Below are positions 3,993-63,803 of a DNA stretch of 64,000 nt, in pieces. The stretch is from an uncultured Methanosarcinaceae archaeon (lineage in GTDB: Archaea; Halobacteriota; Methanosarcinia; Methanosarcinales; Methanosarcinaceae). The position numbers and the translations under genes were made by a program. Location of the stretch: assembly GCA_963733675.1 (NCBI GenBank), contig CAVTET010000007.1, positions 32,001-96,000 of the forward strand, read 5' to 3'. The notes under the pieces were generated by a model. It saw nothing but the letters and a program-made list of their open reading frames with translations. It had not been told where the DNA came from and searched no databases. Each line of letters starts with the position of its first letter. The stretch's first letter is position 1.

Positions 3993-4411
3993 TATTTTAT
4001 TACGCTCCTTTCATATTGTTCAACTTAGCACTAAATGCAGATAACACTTTTAGATATATAAATATATATGTATAATTTCTAGTTTATTGTGGATAAGCTT
4101 TTTGTGATATTTTGGTGGCGTTTACACAGGTACATTTTGTGGGTCATCAATACGGATATCTAAAATATACAGAGCTTTCATTGCAAAATCTATGCATCGA
4201 TGAAAATAATGGAAAAATTCTGTTTTGTCTGATGCGATAAAATTATACATAGTCAATCCGAATTTAGAGATCTTTAAGAATATAAAACATCAGACACCTA
4301 ATTGGAGAAAATGACGAGTAGATATAATAGATATTATGCATATTCTCGTTAGCTATAAATTCACTGTTCTACCATTATTAGTGTGGAGATGCTTGGAGGA
4401 CTTAATAGACA

Positions 4412-4720
4412 ATGCCTTCTCAAGAGCTAAAAAATTCGGAATTTTTTATTGAGATATTAAGACAACATCTACCCAAGTTAAGAGAAAAATATAGTGTAAG
4501 CTATCTTGGAATTTTTGGGTCTTACATTCGTGGAGAGCAGACCAAAGATAGTGACCTTGATGTACTAATACAATTTGATAAGAAGCCAGGACTTTTGAAA
4601 TACATTGAATTGGAAAACTATCTCAGCGACCTTTTAGGAGTAAAGGTTGACCTAGTAATGAAAAGTGCACTTAAACCCAATATTGGGAAGCAAATTTTGA
4701 ATGAGGTAAAAGCTCTATGA
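4412..4720 (+). CDS. Minimal nucleotidyltransferase (MNT antitoxin)
   Basis: FGSYIRGEQTKDSDLDVL (GS...DxD) motif, 102 aa. Confidence 0.9.
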   Translation: MPSQELKNSEFFIEILRQHLPKLREKYSVSYLGIFGSYIRGEQTKDSDLDVLIQFDKKPGLLKYIELENYLSDLLGVKVDLVMKSALKPNIGKQILNEVKAL

Positions 4721-4812
4721 AAATAGAGAAAAGAAATCCTGTAGATTTTTTGATGGATATTTTTGATGGATATACTAGACTCGATTGAAAAAATAGAAAA
4801 TTTTGTTGAAGG
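4717..4812 (+). pseudogene. HEPN/DUF86 toxin 5' fragment, frameshifted and truncated by the left TIR
   Basis: ATG overlaps the MNT stop; 'DILDSIEKIENFVEG' reads in a shifted frame after a duplicated GATGGATAT; similarity ends at 4813. Confidence 0.7.
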
Positions 4813-5120
4813 GCTTCAAAGTGCAGTTTTATTGACTCCAGTAGGTCAGTCCATGACTCTTTTACTTGTCTGTTAGCTTTTGTTAAAGTGTGCCGATTTT
4901 TCTGTAAAATCAAAATACCTAAAAGTCATTGGGTAAAAAAGTTTATGCCCGAAGAACAAAATTTAAAACCATAAACAGAAATCCAACTTTGAATTTACAG
5001 TAAATCCACGACACTATCAATTTTTGCCTATGTGCCTGTAAACTCAATTATTCCATAGTTTATAGGAATATTCAAGATTCTACCGATTTATACCCTACTA
5101 AATGCAAAAAAATAGTGAGA
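4813..5120 (+). repeat. Left ~310 bp inverted repeat
   Basis: GCTTCAAAGTGCAGTTTTATTGACTCCA...AATGCAAAAAAATAGT aligns along its length with the reverse complement of 16505-16813. Confidence 0.9.
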
Positions 5121-5386
5121 ACCACATCTATACTAAAGAATCATAATCCTTGGATTAATTTTACGGCTATATGTTATATTTTGTAGTTAATATGTGTGGA
5201 TTTCACCAGGAAACTTTTATAATAAATTATAGATTGATCCTCAGATCCTCTGTTTAATATTTAGGATATGGTTAGACTAATTATATTATGGATATTTTTA
5301 TATAATGAAGACGTGCTATGAGATATAAACTTAACAAATGTGTTCACTAATGGTAGATTATTTTCATAAACACAATTAATATATTC

Positions 5387-21737: not shown

Positions 21738-22069
21738 TCGTAGTATAAACGTCTTCAAGGGCTTGAAGATCTTCAAAACAAACGACTGTGCTCAGGCTGA
21801 AGAAAGGTATCGGTCGCTTGATAAGACAGGATAGGAACATATGATTGGCAACCTTGTGGCCGACCTGAGCCATGTCACCATTTTAGCTATTCAAAGATGT
21901 GCAATCGAAAACTTGCGGTAGGCTGATGAGACTTTGGCAACATATGCAGCAAAAGGGTTGAGCCTTTAGATGTTGAGTGGGGCCTGATAGACTTTACTGA
22001 TCTATGAAGAGACACAGATCATTCAAGTTCCTCTCGATTTATAAGTTTTGAATTAGAACTAGTGAGAGA

Positions 22070-22343
22070 ATGAAGAGCTTAAAGGGAACTAAGACCTAGA
22101 AGAATGTATTGCTGTCCTTCGCCGTAGAATCTCAGGCCAGGAATAGATAAAACTATTTTGAATTTCAGGCCAAAGAAGAAAGCCATGAGCAGATAGCAGC
22201 CAATTCCTGGACAGCAGACAATGAAAAAGAGCATGCTAAGATATTTTTCAAGCTTTTAGAAGGTGGAGAAGCGAAGATCACAGGTGCATTCCCTGCCAGA
22301 GTAATCGGGAACACCTTGGCAAATCTCAAAGCTGCTGGTGCCA
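22070..22343 (+). pseudogene. Rubrerythrin fragment
   Basis: MKSLKGTKT...ESQARNR*...TADNEKEHAKIFFKLLEGG...IGNTLANLKAA with stop and frameshifts. Confidence 0.8.
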
Positions 22344-22472
22344 TGTTTTTACACTTCATTTTATTCCTCAAAGTAATAACACCCCCCACTCCCCAATATC
22401 AAAAAACCGATGCCTATTTACTTTTTTAACTTCTTTCTCTTTAACTAAGCTTTAAATGTGTACAGCCTATTT

Positions 22473-22503
22473 ATACATAGGTTTTGTATCAAAATCTCTT
22501 TAT
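22473..22503. other. 31-bp palindromic recombination-like site
   Basis: ATACATAGGTTT-TGTATCA-AAATCTCTTTAT. Confidence 0.55.
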
Positions 22504-22794
22504 TTCCTAAATTTCACAAGAAATAAAAAATATTGATTTAATTCTCATGGAACCCTTGGGACTCATAGAGCATAAACATATGAAGCGTTTTGTAGCTTAC
22601 ATCATAACTCAGACTAGCAAACATAAAAGCAAATTGAACTGAAAAAAACAGGATTATGAAACAACTTAGCGGATTGTTACAGATCCTAAATTTAAATTAA
22701 ATACTAATAATTTGACGTTAAAATACTTATCTGTATATATTATAAAATTTAACCGTTACTTTTTTTAAGTAGAAATAGTTTGAAAAATCAAATC

Positions 22795-23195
22795 CAAAAT
22801 TAAATGTCAAAAAACAAATTTTCGATATTAATAGATCCACTATAGACTGAAGTGGCACCCCCTCTATTGACATTTAAACATATAATTTTGTGCTGAAAAA
22901 AATCCAAATGGAAAGTTTTGATTTATAAAAAGTAAGAAGTCTCGTGTCATGTTTATGATTTACATATATAAATAATTTATTATTTTATCTAACATAATTG
23001 ATTTTTTACCTTCAATATTTTAATGTCAATTGGGGGGTGTATGCCAGCATTTCACTACTTAGCCGATATGGAATTAAATGTCAATCTGGCAAAAAATAGC
23101 TTTAATTTCTTAACATTTGGATTAAACGTCATAAATGTCTATAGTTGTCTCACAAAAATAGACATAATCTTACATACCTCAAATGACATTTAATT
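22795..23195. promoter_or_regulatory. Candidate cdc6-adjacent replication origin
   Basis: Inverted G-string boxes at 22855-22878 and 23018-23039 flanking an AT-rich ~140 bp stretch; further AAATGTCA copies at about 22801, 23075, 23132, 23183. Confidence 0.6.
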
Positions 23196-24453
23196 GATCA
23201 TGCAATCTGAAGACATAGTGACAGATCTTGATGATTTCTTTGGAGAAAACAATAATACAATAGTAAAAGATGCTCAAGCATTATCTTTAGATTACGTTCC
23301 TGAACAAATAGTTGGGCGGAGAGCCGAGATAACAGAACTTGTAAAAATCTTTAAACCAATAGAGTTTAAAGGATATCCTTCTAATGCGACAATATTTGGT
23401 AATTCTGGATATGGAAAGACTGTAGTTGCCAAGTTTGTTCTCCAAAAGCTTATGGAGCGTGTAGAGAAGAAAAAATTATTGAATCACACACTAAAATGGG
23501 TCTATATTCAGTGCAAAAAACATAAAACGGAGATAAAAGTCCTGTTTGAAACAATAACTCAATTAGATTCTAAAACAAAAGTGCCTAAAACTGGCTTGTC
23601 TCCAGGTGAATATTACGATGCTTTATGGGATCTAATCAAAGAGCAGAATATCTCTCTTATTGTAGTTCTCGATGAAATTGATAAATTGAAAAGTGGTGAT
23701 CTTTTATATAATTTAAGTCGTGCTGGTGAATCTCATCAACTTCCAGAACGTCATTTTCTAACTACGATAGGCATTTCAAACGATTTTGAATTTGGTAAGT
23801 ATCTTGACACTAGAACAAAATCATCAATGAATTTCAAAGATGTGGTTTTCTCGGCATATAATGCAGAACAGATAAAAATGATTCTTTTTGACCGTGTTAA
23901 AATTGCATTTAATCCGGGGGCAGTCTCCAACGAGACAATTGAGTTATGTGCTGCAATTTCAGCTAAGGCTCACGGAGATGCTCGCAAAGCTATCGATCTT
24001 TTAAGGGCAGCTGCTATCTATGCTGAAGAGAATGGATATGAGCAGGTACTTCCAGAACATATTGACAAGGCTTTTGAAGAACTGGATGGAGATAGAATGA
24101 TAAAATTTATTCCAAAACTTGCTTTGCATGATAAACTTGTCCTATTATCAATTGTGAAAACAACTAACTATAATAAACAAATTACAAATGTTAGACAAGT
24201 TACTGCAATGTATAATAAACTTTGTGATGAGATTCAAGAAAAAAGGAAAGGGAGAACAACTGTTTCAACTAAGATAGGAGAATTACTCACGATGAGCTAT
24301 ATTAAAGTTCTTTCTGTTAGAAAGGGACGTGGAGAAGGAGGACGAGAGGTAGAATTAAATGTTTCTTCGCGACGTGTTTTAGAAGATGTGTTGTATGAGG
24401 ATTATAACCTGGGAGACTTAAGAGATTTTAATCCAACGATGTTTTCCAATTAA
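23194..24453 (+). CDS. cdc6: Orc1/Cdc6-family replication initiator (divergent, probably MGE-borne)
   Basis: LSLDYVPEQIVGR, GNSGYGKT, VLDEID, GDARKAIDLL, C-terminal wHTH with GRGEGG wing. Confidence 0.92.
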   Translation: MIMQSEDIVTDLDDFFGENNNTIVKDAQALSLDYVPEQIVGRRAEITELVKIFKPIEFKGYPSNATIFGNSGYGKTVVAKFVLQKLMERVEKKKLLNHTLKWVYIQCKKHKTEIKVLFETITQLDSKTKVPKTGLSPGEYYDALWDLIKEQNISLIVVLDEIDKLKSGDLLYNLSRAGESHQLPERHFLTTIGISNDFEFGKYLDTRTKSSMNFKDVVFSAYNAEQIKMILFDRVKIAFNPGAVSNETIELCAAISAKAHGDARKAIDLLRAAAIYAEENGYEQVLPEHIDKAFEELDGDRMIKFIPKLALHDKLVLLSIVKTTNYNKQITNVRQVTAMYNKLCDEIQEKRKGRTTVSTKIGELLTMSYIKVLSVRKGRGEGGREVELNVSSRRVLEDVLYEDYNLGDLRDFNPTMFSN

Positions 24454-24991
24454 TTCTTTTTGTAATCCATAAACGCACATGTTTTAAAGTGAAACATCTA
24501 TATTTTTTAATCTAGTGATAGCCTGCATACGATTCATTACTTAGTTCTAATGTCTTATGTTGATTAAGGATCCAGAAGTCCAACATTTTTTTAGAATGTA
24601 TATCTTAGACTATTTAGTTAGTATAATAAATACATATAAAAAATACTAAAAATATATATTCTTTGGTGTTCATTTAATATCTTAGGACCCATAAATGCAC
24701 TATGGCATAGATCTCAAAATAAAATGTCTTAGCGTGATTATGTGTCTAAAATGAAAAAGCATCAAGTAGCTCTTCGATGTATAGTGTATCTTACCCACAA
24801 CTTATAAAACTATTTTTTATCTATCTTTGAATATACGATATCAGTGGGATGCATGGTGTCTCAAGGATCATAGATGACAGTAAGCTTTTCTGGTAAATAA
24901 TTATTTTTTCTGGTAAATAATTATTATTTCTAAAATATTATATCTAATTTTAATAGGTCCTAGCCTTTTAACTTCCATAGACTCAAAACAG

Positions 24992-25264
24992 AAATAGGGC
25001 AATATCGATTAGTACAAAGAATATCGTTATTGCCCTGGAGATTCGGCGCCCAATTACTTAAAATTATCCATGGAGTTAACATGTATCAACATGAAATTAA
25101 CAACAATAAATTATTGTTTGTGCAGTTGGTGGGATGATCGATCCGATACTTTTAAGCTCATTTTCCCTAACAGTTTAACTTGTTCTGTTAATAGACTGAG
25201 TACTGCTCAATGGTATTGTGTTACATTGATCAAAAGCACATGTTTTACATTAAAACCTATGCAT
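24992..25264 (+). repeat. ~270 bp dispersed repeat (copies 31651-31925 direct, ~47320-47510 inverted)
   Basis: AAATAGGGCAATATCGATTA...GTTACATTGATCAAAAGCA alignable; ends in a 31-bp palindromic site. Confidence 0.8.
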
Positions 25265-25274
25265 ATTGTCAACA

Positions 25275-25725
25275 TCACCCATAAATGTTAGTTTTTATTT
25301 GAAGATCTCTGTTGTTATTTATATTGTATATGTTTTTGATATTCTGTTCTACAACATTACGGCATGGTGAACAACATGGGCATTCACAGCAAGACTTGGA
25401 GGGCGTTATTGTTGCACTAGTATTGGGTGAAAATACTGGTTTGTAATTGTATGAACCTGTTGCATTCGCTAAATTGGTCACTGAACCATTATTAAAATCC
25501 GACTGTTTTATTGTGTAGGTAGCTGTTCCTGTAACACTGCTACCAGGTACAAGATCAGCGCTGGTTATATTGAATGTTCCAGTTATGTTGTCTGCAACAG
25601 TAATAGGTGCGGTGATATTCACATTTCCTGTGTTTGTTACATTATAAGTGTATTCGATAACCTGCCAGACAGCATTATAAGTTGATGGATATGCTGATTT
25701 TACTATTGTCAGAGCTGCAGCATGG
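25275..25725 (-). pseudogene. Surface-protein Ig-like repeat (DUF11/DUF7507-type) fragment
   Basis: LTIVKSA.PSTY...IEYTYNVTNTGNVNIT...ATYTIKQSDFNNGSVTNLANATG with no proper 5' end. Confidence 0.7.
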
Positions 25726-25939
25726 ATGATTTTCTGTAAAATCGTAAATCTCTATATTTGGAGTATTTTTTTTCTTCTCGTTTATTATGTTTTGATTTTA
25801 AATATGGCTTCTGCTATCCTTAAAATATTTCATTTATTTTTAATATCATCACTAACTAGCATTGATATTAATAAAATCTATGCATTTTCCGTTAAATAAG
25901 TGTAAAAAATGCTCTAGAATGTTGACTGAAACTGGAAAA

Positions 25940-25970
25940 ACGCACAGGTTTTGATACAAAAACTGTGCAT
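25940..25970. other. 31-bp palindromic recombination-like site
   Basis: ACGCACAGGTTT-TGATACA-AAAACTGTGCAT. Confidence 0.6.
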
Positions 25971-26076
25971 CAGTTAAAATTAAAAAGAATACGATAAACC
26001 CCTAAATATTATGACAATATTTAAAACTATTACGAAGCAGTTAATATATAAATAGAAATAAGTAGACAGTGTTGAT

Positions 26077-26619
26077 ATGGCTGAACGGCAAGTAGAAAGT
26101 GTGGTTATCGAAATCCCAAAAGGAAGTCGGAACAAATACGAGTATGATAAAAAACAGAAAGTCATTAAATTTAACAGAATGCTTTATTCTTCAATGGTAT
26201 ATCCCTGTGATTATGGGTTTTTTCCCGATACTATAGCACTTGATGGTGATCCCTTAGATGCCCTTGTTTTAACATGGGAACCTACATTTCCAGGATGTGT
26301 AATAGATGTATACCCTATCGCATTGTTTGATATGGAAGATGATAAGGGAATAGATGAAAAGATACTCTGTGTTCCAAAGAGTGATCCATTGTGGAATTAT
26401 ATAGAAACAATTGAACAGGTTCCTCCTCACCTATTAAAGGAAATCACTCACTTTTTTGAAACTTATAAGAATTTAGAGAACAAACACGTGATAATTATTG
26501 GTTGGGAAGGTCTCAAAACAGCAGCCAATATACTCCAAGAAGCTAAATCTCGATATATTGAACAAAATGAAATTGCGGATGGTCACCTTACCCTTAACAA
26601 GCTGTCTGACAATTACTAG
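26077..26619 (+). CDS. ppa: Family I inorganic pyrophosphatase
   Basis: EIPKGSRNKYE, YGFFP, DGDPLDAL, DEKIL, FFETYK. Confidence 0.95.
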   Translation: MAERQVESVVIEIPKGSRNKYEYDKKQKVIKFNRMLYSSMVYPCDYGFFPDTIALDGDPLDALVLTWEPTFPGCVIDVYPIALFDMEDDKGIDEKILCVPKSDPLWNYIETIEQVPPHLLKEITHFFETYKNLENKHVIIIGWEGLKTAANILQEAKSRYIEQNEIADGHLTLNKLSDNY

Positions 26620-26817
26620 CAATAATAAATATTAATCATCTATCAATTAGCTCGTTTTTATTAGTAAATCCATATTTCCATAAAGCATCAATGAAATGCG
26701 GAACAAAAAAACCGAAAAATGACTATACTTTTATTTTTGAAACAAAACCAACTAAATAATAGAGGACTATCCATGCTTGCATAAATTATTTATTTAATAT
26801 TGGTAAACTTCTCCCTG

Positions 26818-26880
26818 AAAGATGATGAAGTCCACCTAGATCTTTAAATCTAAACCGCTTATGCTAATGACTTCTACACA
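26818..26880 (+). ncRNA. Fluoride riboswitch (crcB motif)
   Basis: GATGAAGTCCACC...AAACCGC...GCTAATGACTTCTAC; GAAGTC/GACTTC pseudoknot; directly upstream of crcB. Confidence 0.85.
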
Positions 26881-26898
26881 ATCATCGAGGCTTTTGAC

Positions 26899-27297
26899 TT
26901 GTACATACTTCTATTAGTAGGCATAGGCGGTTTCATAGGCTCTATCTTGAGATATACTTTAAGTGGATGGGTACAGAGTAATCTTGTTAATTTCCCGGTT
27001 GGTACTTTGGCTGTAAATGTTAGTGGCAGCTTCCTTTTGGGGTTAATAATGTACCTTTCTGAGTATCAAGAACTCTTTGGCGAAGAAACCAGGATATTTC
27101 TGACAATTGGATTAATCGGTGGCTATACAACATTATCAACATTTAGTTATGAGTCATTCAGATTATTAGACGATTCAAAACTAACACTAATGGCAATAAA
27201 TTTGATGGCCACAGTATTATTTTCCATGTTTGCAGTGTATTTAGGGAAAATTGTGGCTTTGAACTTTTACACGTATCTGCTAAGGGGAATTAGATGA
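26899..27297 (+). CDS. crcB: Fluoride channel CrcB/FluC
   Basis: GGFIGSILRY, PVGTLAVN, GGYTTLSTFSYE. Confidence 0.95.
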   Translation: MYILLLVGIGGFIGSILRYTLSGWVQSNLVNFPVGTLAVNVSGSFLLGLIMYLSEYQELFGEETRIFLTIGLIGGYTTLSTFSYESFRLLDDSKLTLMAINLMATVLFSMFAVYLGKIVALNFYTYLLRGIR

Positions 27298-27680
27298 AAA
27301 AAGAATCTCAGGCTATATTATTGAGAATATTCATTGGAGAGTCTGATAGGTATAACGGCAAATCGATGTATATACATATACTTGAGATGCTCAAAAATGA
27401 AGGAATCGCAGGGGCAACTGTCTTTAGAGGCATTGCTGGTTTTGGAAAACACAGCCGTTTTCATACAACATTTATATTGCAGTTATCCACTGACCTGCCA
27501 ATACTTATCGAAATAGCTGATCTCGAAGAAAAAATTGATAAGATCAAACCAAAATTGGACGAAATAATTACCCAAGGGTTGATCACAGAAAAAAAATTAA
27601 AATTGTATTTTATGACTACAACAAAGAGAAATGAAATCTTCGTTACAATATCCTTACGCAGTGAACTGGGAAATCAATAA
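27294..27680 (+). CDS. DUF190 protein (crcB-associated, PII-like); C-terminus possibly frameshifted
   Basis: LLRIFIGESD, GATVFRGIAGFG, LSTDLPILIEI. Confidence 0.85.
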   Translation: MKKESQAILLRIFIGESDRYNGKSMYIHILEMLKNEGIAGATVFRGIAGFGKHSRFHTTFILQLSTDLPILIEIADLEEKIDKIKPKLDEIITQGLITEKKLKLYFMTTTKRNEIFVTISLRSELGNQ

Positions 27681-28044
27681 CATCAAACCTTCAATTGTCT
27701 AAGAAATGATTTTAACCACACTATCTAAAGTACTTGATTTTATACTTCACGTGCTTAAATTATAATGAAATTGGCGATTAGACCCGAAGGAACCTTTGCT
27801 GATGTCAGTGTATTAAAATGTATACAGTATATCTAAAGTTCTGTAAATTCCGATAGATATTATCCCCTTTCTTTACAACAAAAAGAAGATTTATCGTTTT
27901 TATTGATGTGGAAGTTTTCATACAAAACCTATCATCTCGGGATTAAGGGAATTCAAACCTTTGGACCAAAGCTATACTGCTGTTCAATAATTTTATCATG
28001 AAATCAAAGCACTTATAGCACTCATGACAGGCTATGAATTTTCA

Positions 28045-39558: not shown

Positions 39559-39750
39559 CTGTGAAAGCAATACAGGAGCTTTATCAATAACATAATTGAC
39601 TAGGTATCCTTCTTTTGAAACAAAAAATCGAGTTATCATTTTTTCCAGAACTTTGAGTACACTGATTTCTTGTACTTTAATACTTGAAATGTAGGATGAT
39701 ATAAAAAAAGAAATAATAATTTCCTGCATATACACTAAAAAGGTGTAGAA

Positions 39751-39909: not shown

Positions 39910-40153
39910 AATGAGCTAAATAATTAAAAGGGGGTTATTACAGTTCCCCTTTTTTTGCCTACATTACTTTATGCACTTGTGGGATTTGGTAAGTTCCATT
40001 TAATACCTTGGACCTGGTGGATACATTTTAGATTTCACATAAAAATTTTCATTTGGTGTGGATAGCCAATTTGATTCTTTTCCTGAAGGTTCATCGTGTT
40101 GGATGTAATGTCCAGGGAATTATCTGGGTTTATCATGTGGCACATTTTTATAT

Positions 40154-40432
40154 TCAGATTACATAGCTGCCGCATCCACCGTATCCGATGCCGTAACCGC
40201 AGCTGCCATACCAGGGATATCCAAAGCCATAGCCCCAGCCGCCATACCAGGGGTATCCAAAACCATAGCCACCCCAGCCACCGCCCCAGCCGCCGTGGCC
40301 CCAATGGCCGCCATGACCGCCGTGACCGCCACCGTGTGCACTAGCTGCAACTGCTGACAAAGACGTTATAAATAAAACTGCCAGTAAAATGGCAAGTACT
40401 TTTTTCATTTTATCAGATGATTGTTTCAACAT
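40154..40432 (-). CDS. Secreted Gly/His/Trp/Tyr-rich peptide (signal family)
   Basis: GGAGTGG RBS; signal ending AASA; tandem GYGFGYPWYG. Confidence 0.8.
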   Translation of the reverse strand: MLKQSSDKMKKVLAILLAVLFITSLSAVAASAHGGGHGGHGGHWGHGGWGGGWGGYGFGYPWYGGWGYGFGYPWYGSCGYGIGYGGCGSYVI

Positions 40433-41035
40433 TTATTCCACTCCTTTTATTATATTTACATTATAATATTTTGAGCCTTATCTTTGAATCATTGCTCTAT
40501 CGATTAATAGTGAAACCAAACTTAACTGGCCTGCTAGTAAAAAGATAAGTATCTTTGTTACTGAGCAGCAATCATTAATAATGGCTTAATTATATATTAA
40601 GATTATTAGATTAATAAAAAAATAAATATAAGGGAGTTCACGAATGAATCCACACGTTTAAAAAGCGCATTTCTGCATTAAAATGAAGAAAAATAAAACG
40701 TCAAATACCCTTCAATAAAATTCAAAAATGTAATTAACAACAGAATTTCTATAATAACCAGCCAGTACTACCCTAACTGTGACTGTGTGCTGAACCCTTA
40801 CACTAACCAATGGATTGAAATGCTAATCAGTATGTATAGGCACCTATTAATAGATTCAAGTTTTAAGACCAACTCCATTTTCAAGACAATGTTTCTAAAC
40901 ATCTATAAATTCCAATTGGCTCTGTATCACTTTACTTCATCAAAAAATAGAATCCAGAGCTTTGTGTCTGAATGAAGACGAACAGGCGATATTATGGGGT
41001 TTATCAAGTGGAGATGAATTAACGTCTAAACAGCT

Positions 41036-41184
41036 GGTTCTGTTGCAAAAAATCTGGCTATTTTACAAAACCAGTAAAAAACATCACAAATAGGATATTT
41101 ACACGCCATAAACAGGTCAATAATGATACAAAAAGCAATAGTTATAGCCTACAAAGGCAATAAAATTATTTTTGCAACAGAACC
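41036..41184 (+). mobile_element. 149-bp IS6-type MITE (copy 3)
   Basis: Near-identical to 33438-33586. Confidence 0.9.
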
Positions 41185-41496
41185 ATGTTTCTTATTGTTT
41201 TAGGGATCTTTGAAATTTGATGCTAAACTCATCCCTAAAAGTACTATAGAGTAACCTTAGATCAAATTCTTGATTTTAAACGCCTGATAAGAGTTATTAT
41301 CCACACCACTTGATTGAAGCAAAAATTATTCAATATATAGTAGCGACTTTGTATCTGAAAAATATTGGTGATCACAAGATAACAACAAGCTGAAATGGCT
41401 GGAATTTGATTGTTAATGACTTGAAGTATGAACATGATGCAAATATATTTAACAGTTCACTAGGTCCTCAAACTATAGAAATTGTCGAAGGTGGTG

Positions 41497-42992
41497 ATAT
41501 TGAAATAAAAATAGTATATTTAGTAAAAGGACATATAACCCATGCTAAATTGTAATACAATGGAGCTTGAATTACAGGGATGAATGTTGCAAAAATTAAC
41601 TATTATGGAAATCAAAGTGCATTATGAATTAAAAAGATTGATACTGCTGATGCTGCACATATCAACAGTATCTAATTGACTGTATGAGGATTTGTTTGTC
41701 TGTTCGACAAAACAATATTTGTTCTAGCACACTATAAACTTTTTTATTTAGTTTTTTGAAATCTGGTTCTTTTCTATACAACCCACAAAACATATTTGCT
41801 CAGTATTCCATAACATTTTTTGGTTCTTTGATTCGTCTATTTTGGATAATACCCCACGTACCCTTTATGGATTAAATTTTGAAAATATGAAATCATAAGA
41901 GACTGAATCAAATATTGACTTTGCAACAAACAAAAAAATGTTCTGTTTACATGTTATCTAAACTCCTACATAATGATTTTTCCAATATAGGTCACATACT
42001 TAGTCTAATTGACCGGATTTTTTCATTAATTCACGTGTATGCTTAACAAGAAAATCTGATGTCTTTGAATTTGGATCTGCTACAATAGCTATATTATAAA
42101 ACTTCAGTGAAGTATTGTAATCTCCAGCTTGCTCAGCTAACATTCCATCATGAATAATTAATCTTTGAAAGTTTTGTCCAGTTGGTTTCATTTTTGCTGC
42201 TTCGTTGTAAGATTTAATTGCAGAATTAATATCTTCTGCCTGAATGGAAAACTGTCCGTCCTGAAGTAACCGCTCAAATTTGCTTTGATCGAAATTGATA
42301 TTTTTATGATTATCGTTGTTATTATTCCAAGGCCAAGCGTTGACTGCGGAACCACTGTTTACTAGCATCAGTAGTGCTACTATTCCAATCACAATTATTT
42401 TTTTATTCATATAAAAAAATCTCCCTTATGAAACTGATTGATCACATTTTGGATCTAAAGGCAAATGTGATAATATAATGGACTTCAATATGATGAAGAT
42501 TCAGCAACTTTTGATGCTTCGATGGGTAATCAAGATGTGGATGTTTTTAAAAGAGATGAACTCAAATCAAAAATAGTATTTCTATTAAACGGCCATCCAA
42601 TCCGTGCTCAATTGCAATACAAAAGAGCCTGGGGGATGGGTCTGAGCATCGCAAAAGTTAACTATTATGGGAATAAAAGTTCATTATGAATTGGAGAGAT
42701 TGATACTGTTGATGCTGCACATATCAACAGTATCTAATTTACTTTAAAATGTTTATTAATCTGTTCTGCAAAAACAATATTTGTTTTAAACATTATAAAC
42801 TTTTTCATTTAGTTTTTTGAACTCTCAATTTTGTTCTATACAACCCACAAAACACATTTGCTCAACATTAAACAGCATATTTTGGGTTATTCAGTTCGTC
42901 TGTTTTTGATATCATATGGATCATTTGTGGATAAAATCCTGGGATATATAGTCAGAAGAGACTAAATCACGTATTGACTCTGCAATAAACAA
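41497..42992 (+). repeat. Two diverged ~440 bp direct repeats (41497-41933, 42555-42992) flanking one gene
   Basis: Shared GATACTG.TGATGCTGCACATATCAACAGTATC and CTATACAACCCACAAAACA blocks; partial third copy at about 47880-47980. Confidence 0.8.
42000..42410 (-). CDS. Secreted TPR-like protein
   Basis: Signal peptide, helical TPR-like pairs, GGGAG RBS. Confidence 0.7.
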   Translation of the reverse strand: MNKKIIVIGIVALLMLVNSGSAVNAWPWNNNNDNHKNINFDQSKFERLLQDGQFSIQAEDINSAIKSYNEAAKMKPTGQNFQRLIIHDGMLAEQAGDYNTSLKFYNIAIVADPNSKTSDFLVKHTRELMKKSGQLD

Positions 42993-45260: not shown

Positions 45261-45502
45261 CGACCAAAAATTCAGTTACTATTTTGATTAAAGATAAATA
45301 TTTTAATAATTGATTATTGTATGCTTTTAGTTTTTTCTGAATAAAATTATTTGGTTAACTATAGCACAGTTTTCTTCAGATAAAATATTTTATATCATTT
45401 TCTGTGTTTTTAATTCGTTGCAGAACAGTATACTGAAAGTTCCATGAAAACTACTGCTTTTCACTTTTCCCCATTATAAAATGAGATTTCGCGGTTACGT
45501 AG

Positions 45503-45533
45503 ATACATATATTTTGCTATAAAATCTGTGTAT
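45503..45533. other. 31-bp palindromic recombination-like site
   Basis: ATACATATATTT-TGCTATA-AAATCTGTGTAT. Confidence 0.55.
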
Positions 45534-45678: not shown

Positions 45679-46407
45679 ATGAATAAGCTGATAGTTTTGA
45701 CGATCGAGCAGATTCACAATGATAATATAAAAGTATACCATCCTGTCATTTTAAAAAGTGATACCGAAATGGTCTTGGTAGACTGTGGTACACCAGGTTC
45801 TGTGTCTAAAATCAAAGAAAATGCTCTGACACAAGGTGTGAATATAGACAATCTAACAAAAGTAGTTCTCACACACCAGGATTTAGACCACGTCGGTTCT
45901 TTAGCAGAATTGAAGCGTAAATATCATGGTATACAGGTTCTTGCTGATATTAAAGAAAGACCATATATTAATGGCGAAAAAGAATTTGTAAAATTACAAA
46001 AACAACGTGAAACATATGATAGTCTCCCTGAAAGCCAAAAAGAAATAATAAGGGTTCTACAACAATCATATAGTAGCTACGAACCTGTTGATATCGATGG
46101 AATTCTTCATGATCATGATATCTTTTCATGGTGTGGTGATGTTGAAATTGTTTCAACTCCAGGGCATACAGGTGGTCATATCTGCTTGTATTTATATGAG
46201 TTCAAAACATTGATTGCGGGAGATGCTTTGTTTATTCAAGATGATGAACTTGTGATCTCGCTGCCAATGTATACTCTAGATTTTGAGCAAGCAAAACAAT
46301 CTATAAGAAAACTTATTGACTATGATATCGAAGAAATAATTTGTTACCATGGTGGTATATACAAAGGTAATATTAAAGCAGCTCTTAATAGAATATTGAT
46401 GACCTAA
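45679..46407 (+). CDS. MBL-fold metallo-hydrolase
   Basis: THQDLDHVG, TPGHTGGH, AGDA, CYHG. Confidence 0.9.
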   Translation: MNKLIVLTIEQIHNDNIKVYHPVILKSDTEMVLVDCGTPGSVSKIKENALTQGVNIDNLTKVVLTHQDLDHVGSLAELKRKYHGIQVLADIKERPYINGEKEFVKLQKQRETYDSLPESQKEIIRVLQQSYSSYEPVDIDGILHDHDIFSWCGDVEIVSTPGHTGGHICLYLYEFKTLIAGDALFIQDDELVISLPMYTLDFEQAKQSIRKLIDYDIEEIICYHGGIYKGNIKAALNRILMT

Positions 46408-46778: not shown

Positions 46779-47798
46779 ATAAAGAAATAATTTCAAAATT
46801 TAGGTTCTGTAGAAATATCTGAAATAACAATTTCCATGACTATTCAACTAAGGCAGGATTCATAATTTTCTCTACATTTTATTCAATACACTTTTATTTT
46901 TTGTTTACTGTTTTATTATATTTATAATAGCATGAATAGATCTTTTTTTGGTAAATCATTCCTATTTAATATGCAATCCTTAAATGCAACGTTTTTATAT
47001 GAAAACTTCTGCATCAGTAAATATGATAACTTCATCCTAGTTAGTTGATACAGAACTAAATTTTCATGATAAGAGAAAGGAATAATGTCTTTAAAATCAG
47101 AATTGGGACAACTTTGCAAGAATATGTACAGTATAAAGGAACTCCTAGAAAATCTGGAGCTTCTGGGACACTTGGAACTAATTAGCCCAAACAACCATCA
47201 TAAATAGAAACATAAGGAAATAATACATATATAGTTCTGGCAGTGCACCAAAGGTTCTGTAAAGTGTAGTTGATTCTGTATCTTTTTCTTCCCAATGAAA
47301 AACAGAAATTGCTCAGTCGGTTAGCAGAATGAGTTAGGGAGTTCAAAAAATAAGCTTAAAAGTATCAGATTGATCATCTCACTAACTACTAATATTTATT
47401 TGTTGTTAATTCCATGTTGATATGTTCTCTCCACGCATCATCAAACAGAATTAGTGACCTAATTTTTGGGCTAATTATGATATATCTTTAGATTGTCGTT
47501 ATTGCCTTTTCTTCTTTTTGTTACATTTAATCTCAAATTAGTAGAAAACTAAATAAAAACATAAAAAGTTTTATACCATGTAAACTTAATGAATTTATTA
47601 TAAAAGTTTACACCATAAGTAGCAATAAAATGTATTTAAGAAAAAAATGGAGTAATAAAAGTATTAAAAAAGTATAGCAAAATTTAATAAATTCGTTAGC
47701 TATCGATTTTAATTAGATAGTAGTGTATCGAAAGGTCCGTAAAAATTACTGTTCACCTTCTTTTTTTCATTGCAAAATAAGATTTCTTGGTTACATTG

Positions 47799-47829
47799 AT
47801 GCATAGCTTTTATAGCAAAATCACGGCAT
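47799..47829. other. 31-bp palindromic recombination-like site
   Basis: ATGCATAGCTTT-TATAGCA-AAATCACGGCAT; spacer is the reverse complement of TGCTATA. Confidence 0.55.
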
Positions 47830-47990
47830 TCAAATACCAGTTTTATAAGTTTACTTGTTGACTCTTGGCTTTTTTTGCGGTGGAAATATTGAAATAAAAT
47901 AGTATATCTAGTAAAAGGTTATCCAACCCATGGCGCTGCAAAAATTAACCATTATGGAAATAAAGTGCATTATGAATTGTTTGAGATAAT

Positions 47991-48845
47991 GGTTCCGTTG
48001 CAAAAAAATCCAAAAAATATGTAAATCTATAAGTAATTAATAAAAATCAAAATATTCAAGGAAAATGTACTAACATTATAAAACTATACCAAACAATTGA
48101 TTAATGTATTTGACTTCATTAAGAACAGAGTAATTTAGATCATTTACTTGTCCTTTTTTGATCATATTCATAGCTTCAATTCCTTTTAAAGTCTTATTAG
48201 CAGATCGAAAAGACTGAAATCCTAACATTGGATTAACGATTCGTTTTATAGATCTATGATCTTGTTCTATAATGTTATTCAAATACCTGGTTTGTCGAAT
48301 ACCTATGTTTTTAGGTAGTATTTTATCATTTTTCAGTTTACCTATAGCAGGTGGATAAGCTGGATTCTTATCAACGGTTATTACCTTTGGAATTTGATTA
48401 TGATACGAACTTAAAGCTTTCTTAAAGAATCTCTTCGCAGCTTTTCGGTTTCGTTTTGCACTTAACATGAAATCGATTGTCTCTCCATTTGAGTCAACTG
48501 CTCGGTAAAAATATTTCCATTTACCTTTTACTTTGATATAGGTTTCATCAACTCTCCACGAATAGTTTGTTAGCTTTAAATGTCTTCTGATTTTCTTTTC
48601 TATTTCAGGTGAATATTGATGTACCCATCTCATGATTGTTGTATGGTCGACTTTTACTTCCCTTTCCACCATCATTTCCTTTAAATTTCTATAGCTCAAT
48701 GGGTATTTTAAGTACCATCTTACATTCAATAGGATAATTTCTCCTTCATAATGCTTCCATTTAAAGGAATTAAATAGCATATTACTATCTTTGATTCCCT
48801 TTTTATTCTATTGTATCATTAGAAAGGATTTTTTGCAACGGAACC
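47991..48845 (-). mobile_element. IS6-family insertion sequence, intact
   Basis: TIRs GGTTCCGTTGCAAAAA / TTTTTGCAACGGAACC. Confidence 0.95.
48076..48780 (-). CDS. IS6-family transposase
   Basis: 234 aa, DETY / D / EQDHR DDE motifs. Confidence 0.95.
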   Translation of the reverse strand: MLFNSFKWKHYEGEIILLNVRWYLKYPLSYRNLKEMMVEREVKVDHTTIMRWVHQYSPEIEKKIRRHLKLTNYSWRVDETYIKVKGKWKYFYRAVDSNGETIDFMLSAKRNRKAAKRFFKKALSSYHNQIPKVITVDKNPAYPPAIGKLKNDKILPKNIGIRQTRYLNNIIEQDHRSIKRIVNPMLGFQSFRSANKTLKGIEAMNMIKKGQVNDLNYSVLNEVKYINQLFGIVL

Positions 48846-48923
48846 CTAAAAACTTATAAATACATCATTTCCTGTTATATCATCGTTTGATATATCAGCT
48901 TTCAAGATGTTGAGGCTCGAGCT

Positions 48924-57385: not shown

Positions 57386-57692
57386 AAATTCATAACCTTT
57401 CATAGATACTATGAGAATTTGGATCCCATGATAAAATGATTAAGCTACGGTACAGTTTTGGTTCAAATGTTTTAATTATCTCGACCCTAAGATGCATATG
57501 TTTCATATGAAAACATCCACATCATTAAAAACGATAAATTCTATTTTTTGTAGTGACAGAAAAAGAATATGGGGTCAATCAGATTTTGTAAACTTTAGGT
57601 GTACTGCCACAGAAAATGTCTTTCAAATATGGAATTTAATCCTAGTTAGTTGATACAGAACTAAATGTTCGTGAAAAAGGAAATAGACTATG

Positions 57693-58769: not shown

Positions 58770-58991
58770 ATGTTGAAACAACAATGTAGTAAAGTAAAAA
58801 CAGTACTGACCATTATGCTGGTAATCTTCTTTTTAGTATCATTGACTGCTGCAGCATCGAGCGCTGAATCAGATCACAAACATGACCATTTGGACCAAGA
58901 TCAATTGGACCACGACCATCATCATCACGATAATAATGATGAATGTTTGGTGTGGAACTCTACCAAGCACGATTGGGTATGGATTTGTTGA
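58770..58991 (+). CDS. Secreted His/Asp-rich peptide (signal family)
   Basis: GGAGTGA RBS; ends CLVWNSTKHDWVWIC. Confidence 0.75.
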   Translation: MLKQQCSKVKTVLTIMLVIFFLVSLTAAASSAESDHKHDHLDQDQLDHDHHHHDNNDECLVWNSTKHDWVWIC

Positions 58992-60012
58992 CGATAATAA
59001 TAACAAAAAATACCAAAAAATGAGAACTCTAAATAGTAGCTCTACTAGGATATGAATTGATAGTAATTTCTGCATGTATTTTGGAATAAATTCCTATTTA
59101 ATAATTTTTTAATAGTTGTTGTCTTATAGAACTTCCGGTACAGTACTCAAGTCAATAGTATACATAACTTTTTTGTAAACTCTGCTCTATACCTTTGTTT
59201 CCACCACAAAAACAGTATTTATTGTTTCATTTATGCATAGTTTTAGTGATTAAATCTCTGGATTTCCTAAATGCCATCAATAGTAAGAAAACCTTATTGA
59301 TCTTTGACTCATGGAGCTTTTGGAACTCTTGGAGCTTATGGAACTCATAGAACATCTGGATCTCTTGGAACACTTGGAACTAATTAACCAGAACCACAAT
59401 TCTAAATAGAAATATTAGAAAAGAATGATAATAAAATACTCTAAACAAAATTAAAAACATGAATATATTAAATCAGGGACTCAATTTATCAACACCACAG
59501 TTTAACTCAATGCTTTTCTAACAAATTTCCCCATCTTGTTATTCTTACTAGAAAAAAATGTCTTAATAGGTTTTGCCATACTCCCTATATTTTTATATTT
59601 GGTTATGGCGTAGATCCCAAAATAAAATGTCTTAGCGTGATTATGTGTCTGAAAGTGAAAAAATGTCAAGGAATTCTTCGATGTATATTGTATCTTACCC
59701 ACAACTTATAAGATTTATTTTTTGATACATTATTGATGCTCATCAGGCTCAGTTATTCACTACTATTGTCTGATCATGGATCAAGATTTCATTTCTTTCT
59801 GATACCCTGCAAGATCAGGATCTTAAAGTTTAATAATGATAGCAATCTTTTAAATATTAACATGTCTCAAAATTAAATCAACTTTTACAATTGTATAATG
59901 TGTAAACTTGATTTTAAATGCAGATCGGAAATTATTCCAAAATGCATACAGGGATTGCTACCAACTCGCATTTTAGTAAAGTTACTCCATATACTTTATT
60001 GGAGAAAATAAA

Positions 60013-61017: not shown

Positions 61018-61629
61018 TCAATCCAAACGTGCAATTCTTACAAGAAACTGAATCGGAACATTATAAATTGTATCTGCACCCTTTTTGTCGACCAGCGCCA
61101 CTACAACTCTTGGTTTTGCATCCATTTCTCTAAGCTGCTCAATCACTTCCACAATAGTTGAACCGGTGGTAATAACATCATCTACAATAACGCAGTTTTT
61201 ACCGGCAACGGATCCAAAATTTCTGCTTATGGTTCCTCTATGACATACCTTGACGATATCATGACCTTTACAATGATAAATCGCTAAATCTGCACCCAGT
61301 TCATATGCCACCATGCTTGCTAGGGGAATACCATTGGCAGCAACACCAACAACAACGTCGACTTCAGTATTTATTTTTTCCAAGGTCTCAAGCACCATGT
61401 CGCAGAGCACAAGTGAGATGTTGTGGAGACGTTTAGCACTTTTTCCTATATTGCTCCAGTTTACGGAAATATCTTTCGGAGCTAGGGATAATACTTCTTT
61501 TTTTGAACGGTTTAAAAGCCAGGTAACAGTTTCTCTTGAAACGTTGAGTTCATCTGCGATCTGACCGGTAATAAGCCCGTTACTTTGCAGTTCTACAGCT
61601 TTCTGTATTAAATCTTCTATATCCTTTAT
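61018..61629 (-). CDS. gfcR: Orotate phosphoribosyltransferase-like HTH regulator (GfcR), ATA at the expected start
   Basis: Frame open from (I)[18 protein letters not shown]...[13 protein letters not shown] through [10 protein letters not shown]. Confidence 0.85.
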
Positions 61630-62161
61630 GATTACATACCCACCTGAAATTTTTATCTGGCTTTATTTCCGGGGCTTCCAAATCAATGACAGTATTATAA
61701 TATCAAGCGTTATATCGCTTTCTTCTCCTAAGATTGAATTTTTTCTTTAGCATTTGCTACTGCTGCTGCTATTGATAATAAAAAACAGTTTTGGTGTAAA
61801 AAATAATATTTACGTAATTTGATACTATAATTCTTACCTTTGTTTACTAATTTTCCAGGAAATGAGATTGATTAACTTCCTAATTGTGAATGCCTATATT
61901 GATTTTGTAACAAAGCCAGATTTTCACATTACAATCCCAAATGAAGTTAATTCCCACGGAAAAAAGGTTCGAAGCTACCCCAGAGAAATGTAGTAGTTTT
62001 CTAAAAGTACTTTATTTTGCCTGTAATCGTCTAAAGTATACCGTTAACCGTAACGTTTAATTTGCTTGATTCTGAACCTCAAGTGCATAGATCCTAAGTT
62101 TGGATAGCTTAAAGTATCAAGTTATTGTCTTCTACTTCAACAGAATAAATCTTATGAAGAG

Positions 62162-63421
62162 ATGAAAGATTTAATGAAGACCACACAGATTGATTATGCC
62201 CGTGATGGGATACTTACTCATGAAATGAAACAAATCATGGAAACCGAAAATATTGATGAAAATATACTGCTTTCGAGAGTAGCTGAAGGAAGCCTAGTTA
62301 TAATGACAAGGAAAAGTTACTCTCCCATAGCTATAGGTAAAAGCAGCAGCACTAAGGTAAATGTTAACCTTGGTACATCTGCTGCAAAAATTGACCCTGA
62401 TGCTGAGATAGAAAAGGTAAAGGTTGCAGAGAAGTATGGAGCAGATACAATCACTGATCTTTCCATGGGTGGAGAGATTAAGTCAATCCGTGCAAGTATA
62501 TTAAAAAATTGTAGTCTACCTATTACCACGGTGCCAATTTATCAGGCCATTGTGGAGTGTGGTATGAAAGATATTACTGAAGATGATCTTTTATCGTATC
62601 TAAGGGCTCATGTAGATGCAGGTATGAGTTCTGTGGTGCTGCATTGTGTGGATAAGACGACCCTAGAAAAACTGAAGGGGGGGGGTAGGATAATGGGTAT
62701 GGTTTCGAAGGGTGGTTCTCTTACAAGTGTTTATATGCTTACAAATGGTTGTGAAAATCCATTCATAAAGAACTTTGAAGAGATTATCGAGATACTTAGA
62801 AAAAAGGATGTTGTTCTTTCCCTAGGAAATACTATGCGAAGTGGATGCGTTCATGATTTTAGGGACAGTGCCCAGATGATGGAAATTGAGACAAATGTCA
62901 GGCTTGCAAATCGAGCTAACGAAGAAGGTGTTCAGGTCATAATAGAAGGCATGGGTGGGCATATACAGGCAGCGGATATTCCTACTCAAGTTGAGCTGTA
63001 TAAATCAAGATCAAGTTCCCCTCTCTTCGTTGCAGGTCCCCTACCCACAGACATCGCCCTTGGATATGATCATATCGCAGGAGCAATAGGGGCTAGTATT
63101 GCAAGCGGTGCAGGAGCAGATTATTTGTGTTATATTACACCTGCAGAGCACCTTTCTCTGCCGAGTTCTCAGCAAGTAAGAGAAGGTTTAATTGCTTTTA
63201 AGATAGCTGCCCATATAGGTGATTCTGTGAAGTATGGAGTTAATTGCAGGGATCTGCTGCTTGCAAAGAAACGTGCACAAATTGACTGGAAAGGTCAAAT
63301 AGATCTTGCACTTGACCCTGACAAACCTAAGGAGATGTGTCCCACAATTGGTCCATGTTCGATGTGTGGTGAATATTGTGCCATAAAAATTATGGGAGAT
63401 TATAGTCAACGTACTGGATAA
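62162..63421 (+). CDS. thiC: Phosphomethylpyrimidine synthase ThiC family (radical SAM)
   Basis: KVNVNLGTS, DLSMGG, TVPIYQA, YDHI, TPAEHL, CSMCGEYC. Confidence 0.92.
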   Translation: MKDLMKTTQIDYARDGILTHEMKQIMETENIDENILLSRVAEGSLVIMTRKSYSPIAIGKSSSTKVNVNLGTSAAKIDPDAEIEKVKVAEKYGADTITDLSMGGEIKSIRASILKNCSLPITTVPIYQAIVECGMKDITEDDLLSYLRAHVDAGMSSVVLHCVDKTTLEKLKGGGRIMGMVSKGGSLTSVYMLTNGCENPFIKNFEEIIEILRKKDVVLSLGNTMRSGCVHDFRDSAQMMEIETNVRLANRANEEGVQVIIEGMGGHIQAADIPTQVELYKSRSSSPLFVAGPLPTDIALGYDHIAGAIGASIASGAGADYLCYITPAEHLSLPSSQQVREGLIAFKIAAHIGDSVKYGVNCRDLLLAKKRAQIDWKGQIDLALDPDKPKEMCPTIGPCSMCGEYCAIKIMGDYSQRTG

Positions 63422-63772
63422 GAGCCTATTCAAAACTAGAAAAATGAATTAACTAATCAAATATGAATTGCATGCTCAGTAAATACTAAAAAATAATTAT
63501 ATGATATATAAATATATTTGGCATGTATTAATACTGGTTAAATATAGAATTGATTAATTAGTTTATGAAGTCTGGTTAATTTGTCAGAAATTGGATAATG
63601 TGTCTGAAATGATAGAAATATAAAAGCCAACGCCAGGACTTATATTATCACCTGTCACAACGTCGTTACTTGCGCTACTTTTACCATTGTTGTGGATTGC
63701 ACTAACCTTTGTTGCTACCAACGAAGCTGCAATGACAGCCACTGACAAAAGATCTGTTTTAGAGTTTTATTT

Positions 63773-63803
63773 ATACATAGTTTTTGTAGCAAAATCTATG
63801 CAT
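63773..63803. other. 31-bp palindromic recombination-like site
   Basis: ATACATAGTTTT-TGTAGCA-AAATCTATGCAT. Confidence 0.6.

Follow-up and report, generated by a model that had tools for sequence, protein, structure and literature searches.

The 64,000-nucleotide stretch of DNA analyzed here, hereafter called the window, lies on contig C7 of the genome assembly of an uncultured Methanosarcinaceae archaeon (G000; 3.92 Mb in 15 contigs, 35.7% G+C, 92% complete). It carries a dispersed, imperfect palindrome, which is the subject of this study. A preliminary description of the window designated the palindrome as two 12-nt arms around a 7-nt spacer (12-7-12) and interpreted its copies as recombinase sites that bracket cargo genes in a mosaic island. 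All 14 places listed there hold the motif, 13 of them as full sites and one as a lone half-site. A strict search of the window for the 12-7-12 pattern with up to three mismatches gave 10 matches at six places (4167, 25234, 25940, 39528, 59233, and 63773), whereas no match was obtained in 100 dinucleotide-preserving shuffles of the window. The half-site with up to one mismatch matched 14 times, whereas 100 shuffles averaged 1.01 matches and never exceeded 4. A relaxed scan (up to six mismatches and spacers of 4–11 nt) regained all 13 full sites and added three more, at 34561, 46984, and 63857. The sites at 22473, 24473, 38519, 47799, and 57492 each have one weak arm, which contains four mismatches.

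The first site (4167–4197, minus orientation) scores 31.8 bits against the position weight matrix (PWM) described below. The cdc6 gene (23194–24453) and its origin are placed between site 22473–22503 (plus orientation, 32.6 bits, right arm weak) and a weak site (24473–24503, 15.2 bits) located 20 nt past the cdc6 stop codon. Site 25234–25264 is followed by a fragment of a DUF7507 gene (25275–25622), the lone half-site (25874–25885, minus strand, found by the half-site scan), and site 25940–25970, which is 107 nt upstream of ppa. Sites 31893–31925 and 38519–38550 have spacers of 9 and 8 nt, respectively; the latter is 72 nt past the vapC stop codon and, together with the perfect site 39528–39558, encloses vapBC (38622–39294). 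An MBL hydrolase gene (45679–46407) lies between sites 45503–45533 and 47799–47829 (right arm weak), and an additional site absent from the earlier list is found at 46984–47014 (26.3 bits). Two weak sites, 34561–34591 (also absent from that list) and 57492–57522, adjoin copies of a short repeat, module B. Site 59233–59263 (plus orientation) heads a module of family A, and site 63773–63803 is 352 nt past thiC, with a degenerate second site (63857–63887) within the module on its right. The cargo named in the preliminary description is thus located between the named sites, and the asymmetric spacers were also read correctly (TGCTATA at 39528 and 45503, TATAGCA at 47799, TGTATCA at 22473, and TGATACA at 25940).

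Because the outer bases of the 7-nt spacer are almost always T and A, the motif is best written as a 13-5-13 form, ATGCAYAGNTTTT-N5-AAAANCTRTGCAT, with a total length of 31 bp. The 13-nt left arm is ATGCAYAGNTTTT, the 5-nt spacer has the loose consensus RTRNY, and the 13-nt right arm is AAAAYCTRTGCAT. Iterative orientation of the copies by expectation-maximization gave an asymmetric consensus, ATGCAyAGTTTTT-GT..t-AAAAtCTaTGcAT, in which the inner ends of the arms are TTTT and AAAA. The spacer is highly diverse, with 57 variants among 160 sites; GTGAT (16 sites), ATAGC (15), and GCTAT (13) are the most frequent.

Pairing between the arms is not maintained at the variable stem positions. Among 110 sites, positions 5 and 25 are complementary in 36 (43 expected) and positions 2 and 28 in 49 (51 expected), whereas positions 8 and 22 are complementary in just 18 (34 expected). 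Single-strand folding of five window copies gave energies from −14.3 kcal/mol (the perfect site) to −2.6 kcal/mol, and two of the five (−2.6 and −3.6 kcal/mol, with z-scores of −0.7 and −1.5) folded no better than shuffled sequences. Because the arms lack covariation and some copies do not fold, it is the base sequence that is conserved rather than the pairing, which points to a site that would be recognized as duplex DNA, although a folded form that purposely retains a mismatch is conceivable.

The motif is present in approximately 150–200 copies across the genome. With up to four mismatches, 135 matches were found on 11 of the 15 contigs, 93 of them with a 7-nt spacer. The weight-matrix scan suggested in the preliminary description, performed with a PWM built from the oriented copies, gave 192 matches at 14 bits or more in G000 and none in the reversed genome. 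The motif therefore belongs to the genome as a whole rather than to the island in the window. Open reading frames (ORFs) of 90 aa or longer, which span 54% of the genome, were taken as a crude gene set. Of 134 sites, 132 fall outside these ORFs; 37 lie between convergent genes, 26 between divergent genes, and 69 between tandem genes. The polarity of the site shows no link to the direction of the adjacent gene on either side (57 vs. 53 and 59 vs. 51) or to GC skew (Fisher p = 0.69). The distance from the sites to gene starts is not fixed, the next start being at a median of ~600 nt with a wide spread. Gene 3′ ends are closer (10th-percentile distance of 43–91 nt, compared with 167–186 nt for starts), and several sites are only 11–41 nt past stop codons.

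Neighboring sites tend to have the same orientation. Within 5 kb, 20 pairs are direct and 13 are inverted; within 10 kb, 35 have the same orientation and 16 the opposite one, compared with 11 and 12 at distances above 50 kb. Some sites form clusters, in which two or more of them lie within 4 kb of each other together with short ORFs in one direction, but most sites are solitary. The highest site density in the genome is on contig C13. In the local arrays, sites spaced by 0.5–2 kb enclose micro-ORFs, small secreted-protein genes, toxin-antitoxin pairs, and broken genes. An all-versus-all comparison of the flanks showed that homology is mostly one-sided and halts at the site. The site is combined with modules A, B, and C in varying mosaics. 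These features depart from the inverted pairs of plasmid dif (pdif) modules to which the preliminary description likened the site pairs, since the neighbors are mostly direct, many modules have a site at one end only, and the spacers are numerous.

Unrelated repeat families end at the site. The sequences at 25234 and 31893 are 85% identical over 214 nt, which comprise 200 nt of flank and the first 14 nt of the site; the left-hand copy of this ~270-bp repeat ends ~14 nt within site 25234. The preliminary description had noted that the repeat ends in such a site. Family A consists of 67 loci genome-wide, in which the site is placed ~55 nt upstream of the ATG of a micro-ORF of the type MELMELIEHLELMEHLELINPNNHHK (23–32 aa). 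By a hand count, the start and stop codons are kept in ~40 of the 67 loci, although the copies are only 70–85% identical in DNA, and their lengths step by 18 nt. The micro-ORFs of family A are likely to represent a real, unannotated family of small proteins. The window copy (59311–59409, plus strand) is predicted to encode 32 aa, MELLELLELMELIEHLDLLEHLELINQNHNSK. In the 29 of 67 copies with a full site in register, the mean pairwise identity is 0.34 in the 20 nt upstream of the site, 0.83 in the left arm, 0.63 in the spacer, 0.80 in the right arm, and 0.74 in the next 30 nt.

Module B is a repeat of ~80 nt (57 nhmmer matches) with an internal A/T-rich hairpin and the outer end AAAGTTC. It abuts a site in 30 of the 57 matches, at a distance of 1–11 nt and on either side, and 27 matches have no adjacent site with a 7-nt spacer. 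In the window, copies at 45436–45501 and 47731–47798 (both plus strand) abut sites 45503 and 47799, and further copies are found at 34596–34666, next to site 34561, at 57527–57594 (minus strand), to the right of site 57492, and at 3367–3433 and 27835–27905. A complete palindromic element of ~190 bp with module B on both sides of the site was considered and dismissed; it occurs at one locus of the related genome G031 and at none of 160 sites in G000. At the outer edge of site 39528 begins a 1.43-kb unit with a small secreted-protein gene, which is 92–93% identical to C13:8345–9763.

Small secreted-protein genes with a signal peptide of the type MLKQSSSRIKKVLAILL and His/Gly/Trp-rich tails adjoin the sites, and toxin-antitoxin pairs are also among the neighbors. 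Genes of the secreted family are found in the window at 2550–2942 (minus strand), 40154–40432 (minus strand), and 58770–58991 (plus strand), with at least 15 more in the genome. Their signal peptides are nearly identical (MLKQSSSRIKKVLAILLAVLF...SA), and their variable tails abound either in His, Gly, Trp, and Tyr or in His and Asp. The proteins may have a metal-binding function or a role in the cell envelope.

Such neighbors could also be explained if the motif were the operator of a clade-specific regulator, for example a ribbon-helix-helix or metal-sensing protein, that binds as a dimer or tetramer to two ATGCAYAG boxes 15 bp apart. Its regulon would comprise the small secreted proteins rich in His, the micro-ORFs that contain His, and the toxin-antitoxin pairs. 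Recognition of duplex DNA would fit the missing covariation, and two 8-nt boxes around an AT-rich stretch look similar to known tetramer operators. The neighbors of the sites are enriched in small His/Gly-rich secreted proteins and in a micro-ORF of the HxxxH type, and a ribbon-helix-helix-like gene lies ~260 nt from a site on both contig C13 and the viral contig L114. The position of the site at a fixed ~55 nt upstream of the family-A ATG would also be expected of an operator; the position is fixed only in this family, by common descent. We nevertheless consider an operator decidedly unlikely, because the sites have neither a fixed distance to gene starts, which the preliminary description had named as the mark of a regulon that would refute its own model, nor a polarity tied to gene direction, and because many are found directly behind a stop codon or, in 37 of 134 cases, where two genes converge. 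An increase in copy number from 0–2 to dozens within one clade would be unusual for a regulon, and the breaks of homology at the site between genomes, described next, would be left unexplained.

The flanks of the site change partners between closely related genomes. Upstream of ppa, the gene-side arm of site 25940 and the flank beyond it are common to G000, G031, and G044, whereas the spacer and the other arm differ and the DNA past them is unrelated. Downstream of thiC, genome G070 is 94% identical to the window through the left arm of site 63773; from there on, the spacer, two right-arm bases, and all further DNA differ, and G070 has a family-A module instead. The two flanks of site 45503 are found on two different contigs of G070: the MBL side with its arm is on G070 contig C13 beside a full site, and the HicA/module-B side with the spacer of G000 is on G070 contig C15, also beside a full site. 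In four high-identity cases, the left arm (in the PWM orientation) tracks one flank, whereas the spacer and right arm track the other. No target-site duplication was seen at the ppa and thiC junctions.

We surveyed 61 sites of G044 and G031, with counts made by hand and best hits that may be paralogues. Among 59 flank matches that abut a site, 37 stop within 52 nt of a G000 site, and four more abut sites with a 9-nt spacer. Both flanks were matched in 14 cases, of which 13 map to two different G000 loci and only one is contiguous; in 5 of the 13 partner changes, both loci are themselves at sites. Together with the ppa, thiC, and 45503 cases, these results bear out the earlier suggestion that breaks of synteny and homology fall at the sites. 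Pairs with only the right flank in common resemble each other more closely in the spacer and at the variable positions of the right arm, and not at left-arm positions 2 and 5. With a common right flank (n = 22), the right arms differ by 2.05 mismatches, compared with 3.38 for unrelated pairs (hand-worked baseline).

The motif is almost confined to one clade of the genus. With at most one mismatch, there are 32 copies in G000. Among the 18 further genomes of the genus sampled first, nine have copies (7, 7, 2, 2, 1, 1, 1, 1, and 1), additional members of the genus have 28, 18, 13, 11, and 1, and none of the 12 genomes from five other families has such a copy. When one genome from each of 185,579 species was scanned for exact matches, 45 stretches were obtained. 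The records of 42 of these are titled Methanosarcina, Methanosarcinaceae, Methanosarcinales, or Methanobacteriota archaeon, and the remaining three are metagenome bins labeled bacterial; two of the records are of isolate type. One site is on contig L114, which is viral and has a terminase-like gene. The motif has thus expanded within one lineage and is also carried on mobile DNA.

Contig C13 (50 kb) looks like a plasmid or provirus. It contains orc1/cdc6 and primase-polymerase-like genes and has a terminal inverted duplication of ~10 kb, the end of which is ~23 nt beyond a site. Both C13 and L114 have terminase-small-like and ribbon-helix-helix-like genes, which on C13 are beside sites.

We tentatively read the motif as a clade-specific, polar, 31-bp site-specific joint for exchanging or inserting small modules of DNA, a reading that we hold with a little less than even confidence. 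It is based on the conservation of sequence rather than pairing, the intrinsic polarity of the site, its position at one end of unrelated repeat families, the repeated partner changes seen at it when close genomes are compared, the local direct arrays, and the presence of the site on viral and plasmid-like contigs. In the mechanism that we envisage, a sequence-specific enzyme would act in trans and would cut and rejoin DNA where the left arm meets the spacer, or close to this point. Because of a cut there, a module would travel as a unit of spacer, right arm, and cargo, landing beside a left arm. The likeliest enzyme would be a tyrosine recombinase acting on a simple site similar to loxP or FRT. 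Exchange of one strand, perhaps completed by replication, would fit both the one-sided joint and the many spacers. The expected products would be direct arrays containing micro-ORFs, small secreted-protein genes, toxin-antitoxin pairs, and gene fragments. A more far-reaching proposal, in which a candidate recombinase cuts more than 150 loxP-sized sites per genome at the left-arm/spacer junction, shuffles modules chromosome-wide throughout the soil Methanosarcina clade, stacks them in direct arrays, and has them carried between species by viruses and plasmids, seems possible to us but rather doubtful.

Several observations weigh against a recombination joint. As many as 57 spacers among 160 sites would block classical two-strand exchange for most pairs of sites. 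Many modules have a site at one end only, and the 39528 unit stops 45 nt before the position of the second site of its C13 counterpart, the window having no site there. Linkage between the left flank and the left arm, which is already well conserved, was not measurable (2.46 mismatches, compared with a baseline of 2.35; n = 13). Many of the flank matches are paralogues of 80–85% identity, which weakens the systematic test of the exchange point, and neither a simple filled-versus-empty insertion nor a reciprocal exchange was found between G000 and G070. Furthermore, all compared genomes are kin and are mostly metagenome assemblies.

The search for an enzyme adds to these objections. No integrase or resolvase family was detected among the 41 ORFs of the window, in line with the preliminary description, which had noted no recombinase there. 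PF00589 has 14 matches in G000, none of which is on contig C7 or tied to the sites. A tyrosine recombinase of 378 aa is present in four copies (C1:1159553–1160686, C3:665344–666477, C4:1240–2373, and C8:329–1462), which are 97–100% identical and all located at contig ends. At 84% identity or above it occurs only in G000, G068, G070, G044, and G031, with a fragment in G047. Its occurrence follows richness in sites only partly, and it was set aside as the enzyme of the motif, since G032, an 81% complete genome with 13 sites, lacks it and the boundary of its repeat is 1.3 kb from the nearest site rather than at a site. Because it is multi-copy only in a few related genomes, it is explained as a clade-specific integrative element.

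Population data were obtained by comparing contigs of four soil metagenome DNA runs (X1, X2, X4, and X5) with positions 22001–42000 of the window. Short-read contigs of independent runs cross sites 24473, 38519, and 39528 and agree with the reference there. Of the joints, 15 were listed, beyond which there are 30 further ones; none of the 15 connects site to site, a further point against the proposed recombination joint; the listed joints are traceable to paralogues or to ends of insertion sequences (IS). One contig of X5 (record 26) departs from the reference inside site 25940, over its last 17 letters, which is too short to count. Because contigs lose rare variants, this result speaks neither for nor against present activity. 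The window is matched by soil metagenome runs, and the sole RNA run, a metatranscriptome, matches 7% of the sampled words.

The partner changes might also arise from ordinary homologous or microhomology recombination, or from template switching, in a genome churned by IS. The motif would then be an extragenic unit similar to the repetitive extragenic palindromes (REPs) and bacterial interspersed mosaic elements (BIMEs), whose role would be structural or housekeeping, for example as a place where a chromatin protein binds or as a terminator or insulator of transcription. The mosaics of the site with modules A, B, and C and the strictly intergenic placement are as expected for such a unit. The genome is very repeat-rich (114 long copies of an IS6-family element and 70 loci of Y1 transposases), and no dedicated enzyme turned up. 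The proximity of sites to gene 3′ ends and stop codons, together with a run of four to five T residues within the first arm on each strand, would suit a role in termination, runs of four to five T residues being a known kind of archaeal transcription stop signal. In contrast, ~20 invariant bases are few for homologous recombination to yield 13 partner changes in 14 cases, and the high-identity junctions are at one and the same polar position. A folded, REP-like form is also not maintained, because the arms do not covary and the folding energies range from −14.3 to −2.6 kcal/mol, and there is no RAYT-like gene flanked by sites. We regard this explanation as fairly unlikely.

The Y1 loci bear on another alternative, in which mobility is based on a hairpin in single-stranded DNA. 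An HUH enzyme (IS200/IS605, RAYT, or rolling-circle Rep) or an integron-type integrase would copy or excise the segment between direct sites as a unit of loop, right arm, cargo, and left arm. The mismatch at positions 8 and 22 is retained more often than by chance, and structure-specific sites are known to keep unpaired bases. A polar joint at the foot of the loop, one-ended modules, and direct arrays would fit behavior of the rolling-circle or attC type, and the genome offers 70 loci of Y1 (IS200/IS605-type) transposases. The arrays of short ORFs between sites also resemble archaeal integron cassettes, as described in a preprint (10.1101/2022.02.06.479319). However, only 5 of 63 Y1 loci are within 1.5 kb of a site, compared with 8.9 expected at random. 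Many copies of the motif are unable to form the hairpin, there are no compensatory changes, and the lack of relation between polarity and GC skew is a further difficulty. No IntI-type gene turned up beside the arrays, although no search was aimed at IntI, and solitary sites lie beside housekeeping genes (ppa and thiC). We give this alternative a slim chance.

Other transposable elements were considered as the origin of the palindrome. IS200/IS605 ends and RAYT elements were rejected, since the Y1 loci are not near the sites and none is flanked by them; the Y1 copy nearest a site belongs to the common IS family. IS110-type targeting of palindromes has no basis in a PF01548 match anywhere in the genome, which is 92% complete. 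Back-to-back transposon ends were dismissed because half-sites seldom stand alone (1 of 14 in the window). An element of the MITE type (miniature inverted-repeat transposable element) does not fit either: the palindrome is a single internal or terminal unit, the far ends of the modules are arbitrary, and the examined junctions have no duplication. Finally, the motif is not an origin recognition box (ORB), because the cdc6-linked origin has repeats of its own (TTAAATGTCAAT) that are unrelated to the palindrome.

The preliminary description attributed the sites to the host XerA acting in trans, which would turn extra copies of dif into pdif-like modules. Inverted arms around a short asymmetric spacer, cargo between site pairs, and breakpoints at the sites are all compatible with this attribution. 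The hallmarks of archaeal dif, an 11-6-11 form and TAA-N6-8-TTA, are missing from the motif (PMC11840125). There are more than 150 copies instead of one dif per replicon, and their orientation does not alternate. In addition, no canonical short XerA was recognized among the ORFs at the 14 PF00589 loci of this 92% complete genome. Because neither the sequence nor the copy number fits, we do not retain the assignment of the motif to the XerA/dif type and consider the action of XerA on it highly improbable.

Several features of the window and genome are described here in their own right. The origin repeats are of the ORB-type inverted form (TTAAATGTCAAT with C/G strings) and are located at approximately 22795–23200, upstream of orc1/cdc6. 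A fluoride riboswitch (RF01734, 26812–26883, plus strand, 36.3 bits) precedes crcB and a DUF190 gene and is the only known RNA family found in the window. IS6-family DDE transposases are encoded at 35092–35736 and 48076–48780, within copies of an element of ~825 bp (DDE_Tnp_IS240, ends GGTTCCGTTGCAAAA) at approximately 34700–35879 and 47950–48851. The genome has 114 copies of this element of at least 700 bp, with a median identity of 91.8%; the many IS6 copies and broken genes fit a genome in an IS burst. In the main Y1 family, nearly all copies are interrupted at one and the same codon, past the HUH motif and ahead of the catalytic Tyr, by an in-frame TAA, and a second stop is common to many (for example, C5:330753–331121 and C1:936469–936837). 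Either a dead master is copied in trans or the stop is read through. The last ~4 kb of contig C12 (C12:342000–346154) have 68–71% G+C, compared with 35% elsewhere, and contain actinobacterium-like ORFs including an integrase; this end is probably a chimeric join or a contaminant in the assembly.

Beyond IS, tRNA-targeting integrases, and the recently reported integrons, little is understood of how archaea gain and reshuffle small accessory genes. Among the paper listings and abstracts searched, we found no report of such a repeat in Methanosarcina, and the arm sequences were matched only in papers from unrelated fields. If the motif is indeed a recombination joint, it would represent a new and abundant cassette system in methanogens relevant to soil and peat methane, and an archaeal counterpart of integrons and dif modules based on a different site. 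The compact 31-bp site could then be used as a genetic tool in Methanosarcina. Even under a duller reading, the motif marks places where the genome breaks and rejoins and explains part of the mosaic of the island in the window, and under either reading it flags two large families of unannotated small proteins.

The motif can be compared with several known systems, of which dif modules, integron cassettes, and BIMEs come closest. The loxP and FRT sites have a 13-8-13 form and occur once or twice per replicon beside the gene of their recombinase. The motif resembles them in its 13-nt inverted arms, short directional spacer, and apparent recognition as a duplex, and, written as either 12-7-12 or 13-5-13, it agrees with their pattern of ~13-bp inverted arms around an asymmetric spacer of 6–8 bp. 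It differs in having a spacer of 5–7 bp, copies in the hundreds, and no cognate gene found. REPs form stem-loops rich in G+C, and they flank RAYT genes. The motif is similar to the enterobacterial REPs and BIMEs in forming hundreds of extragenic palindromes in mosaics with rearrangements at them, whereas it is A+T-rich, does not conserve pairing, and flanks no Y1 gene.

Archaeal dif is a single 28-bp site per chromosome with an 11-6-11 form and a TAA-N6-8-TTA core (PMC11840125). The likeness to dif and XerA goes no further than inverted arms, a short spacer, and an archaeal host; the motif has a 13-5-13 form with TTTT/AAAA inner ends and 192 PWM matches in 3.9 Mb. In a pdif study (PMC13141974), pdif sites have an 11-6-11 form, distinct XerC and XerD arms, and a strictly alternating orientation. 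The same study states that classical tyrosine recombination needs nearly identical spacers and that pdif exchange was shown between such sites. As in the pdif modules of Acinetobacter, there are many short two-armed sites with an asymmetric spacer, the modules carry toxin-antitoxin and accessory genes, the flanks change partners inside the sites, and the homology of module copies ends inside the sites. Unlike pdif, the motif has 13-nt arms around a 5-nt spacer, is mostly chromosomal with more than 150 copies, has mostly direct neighbors and many one-site modules, and exhibits 57 spacers. The attC sites of integrons, as outlined in the integron preprint (10.1101/2022.02.06.479319), are folded single strands that vary in sequence and length and are located beside an IntI gene and attI. 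Arrays of the motif are similar to attC arrays in their short ORFs, often in one direction, with imperfect palindromes between them, a polar joint, and toxin-antitoxin cargo, whereas the sequence of the motif is highly conserved, its pairing is not maintained, and the sites are scattered genome-wide. In summary, the element acts like dif modules and integron cassettes and looks mosaic like BIMEs, while departing from the defining features of each.

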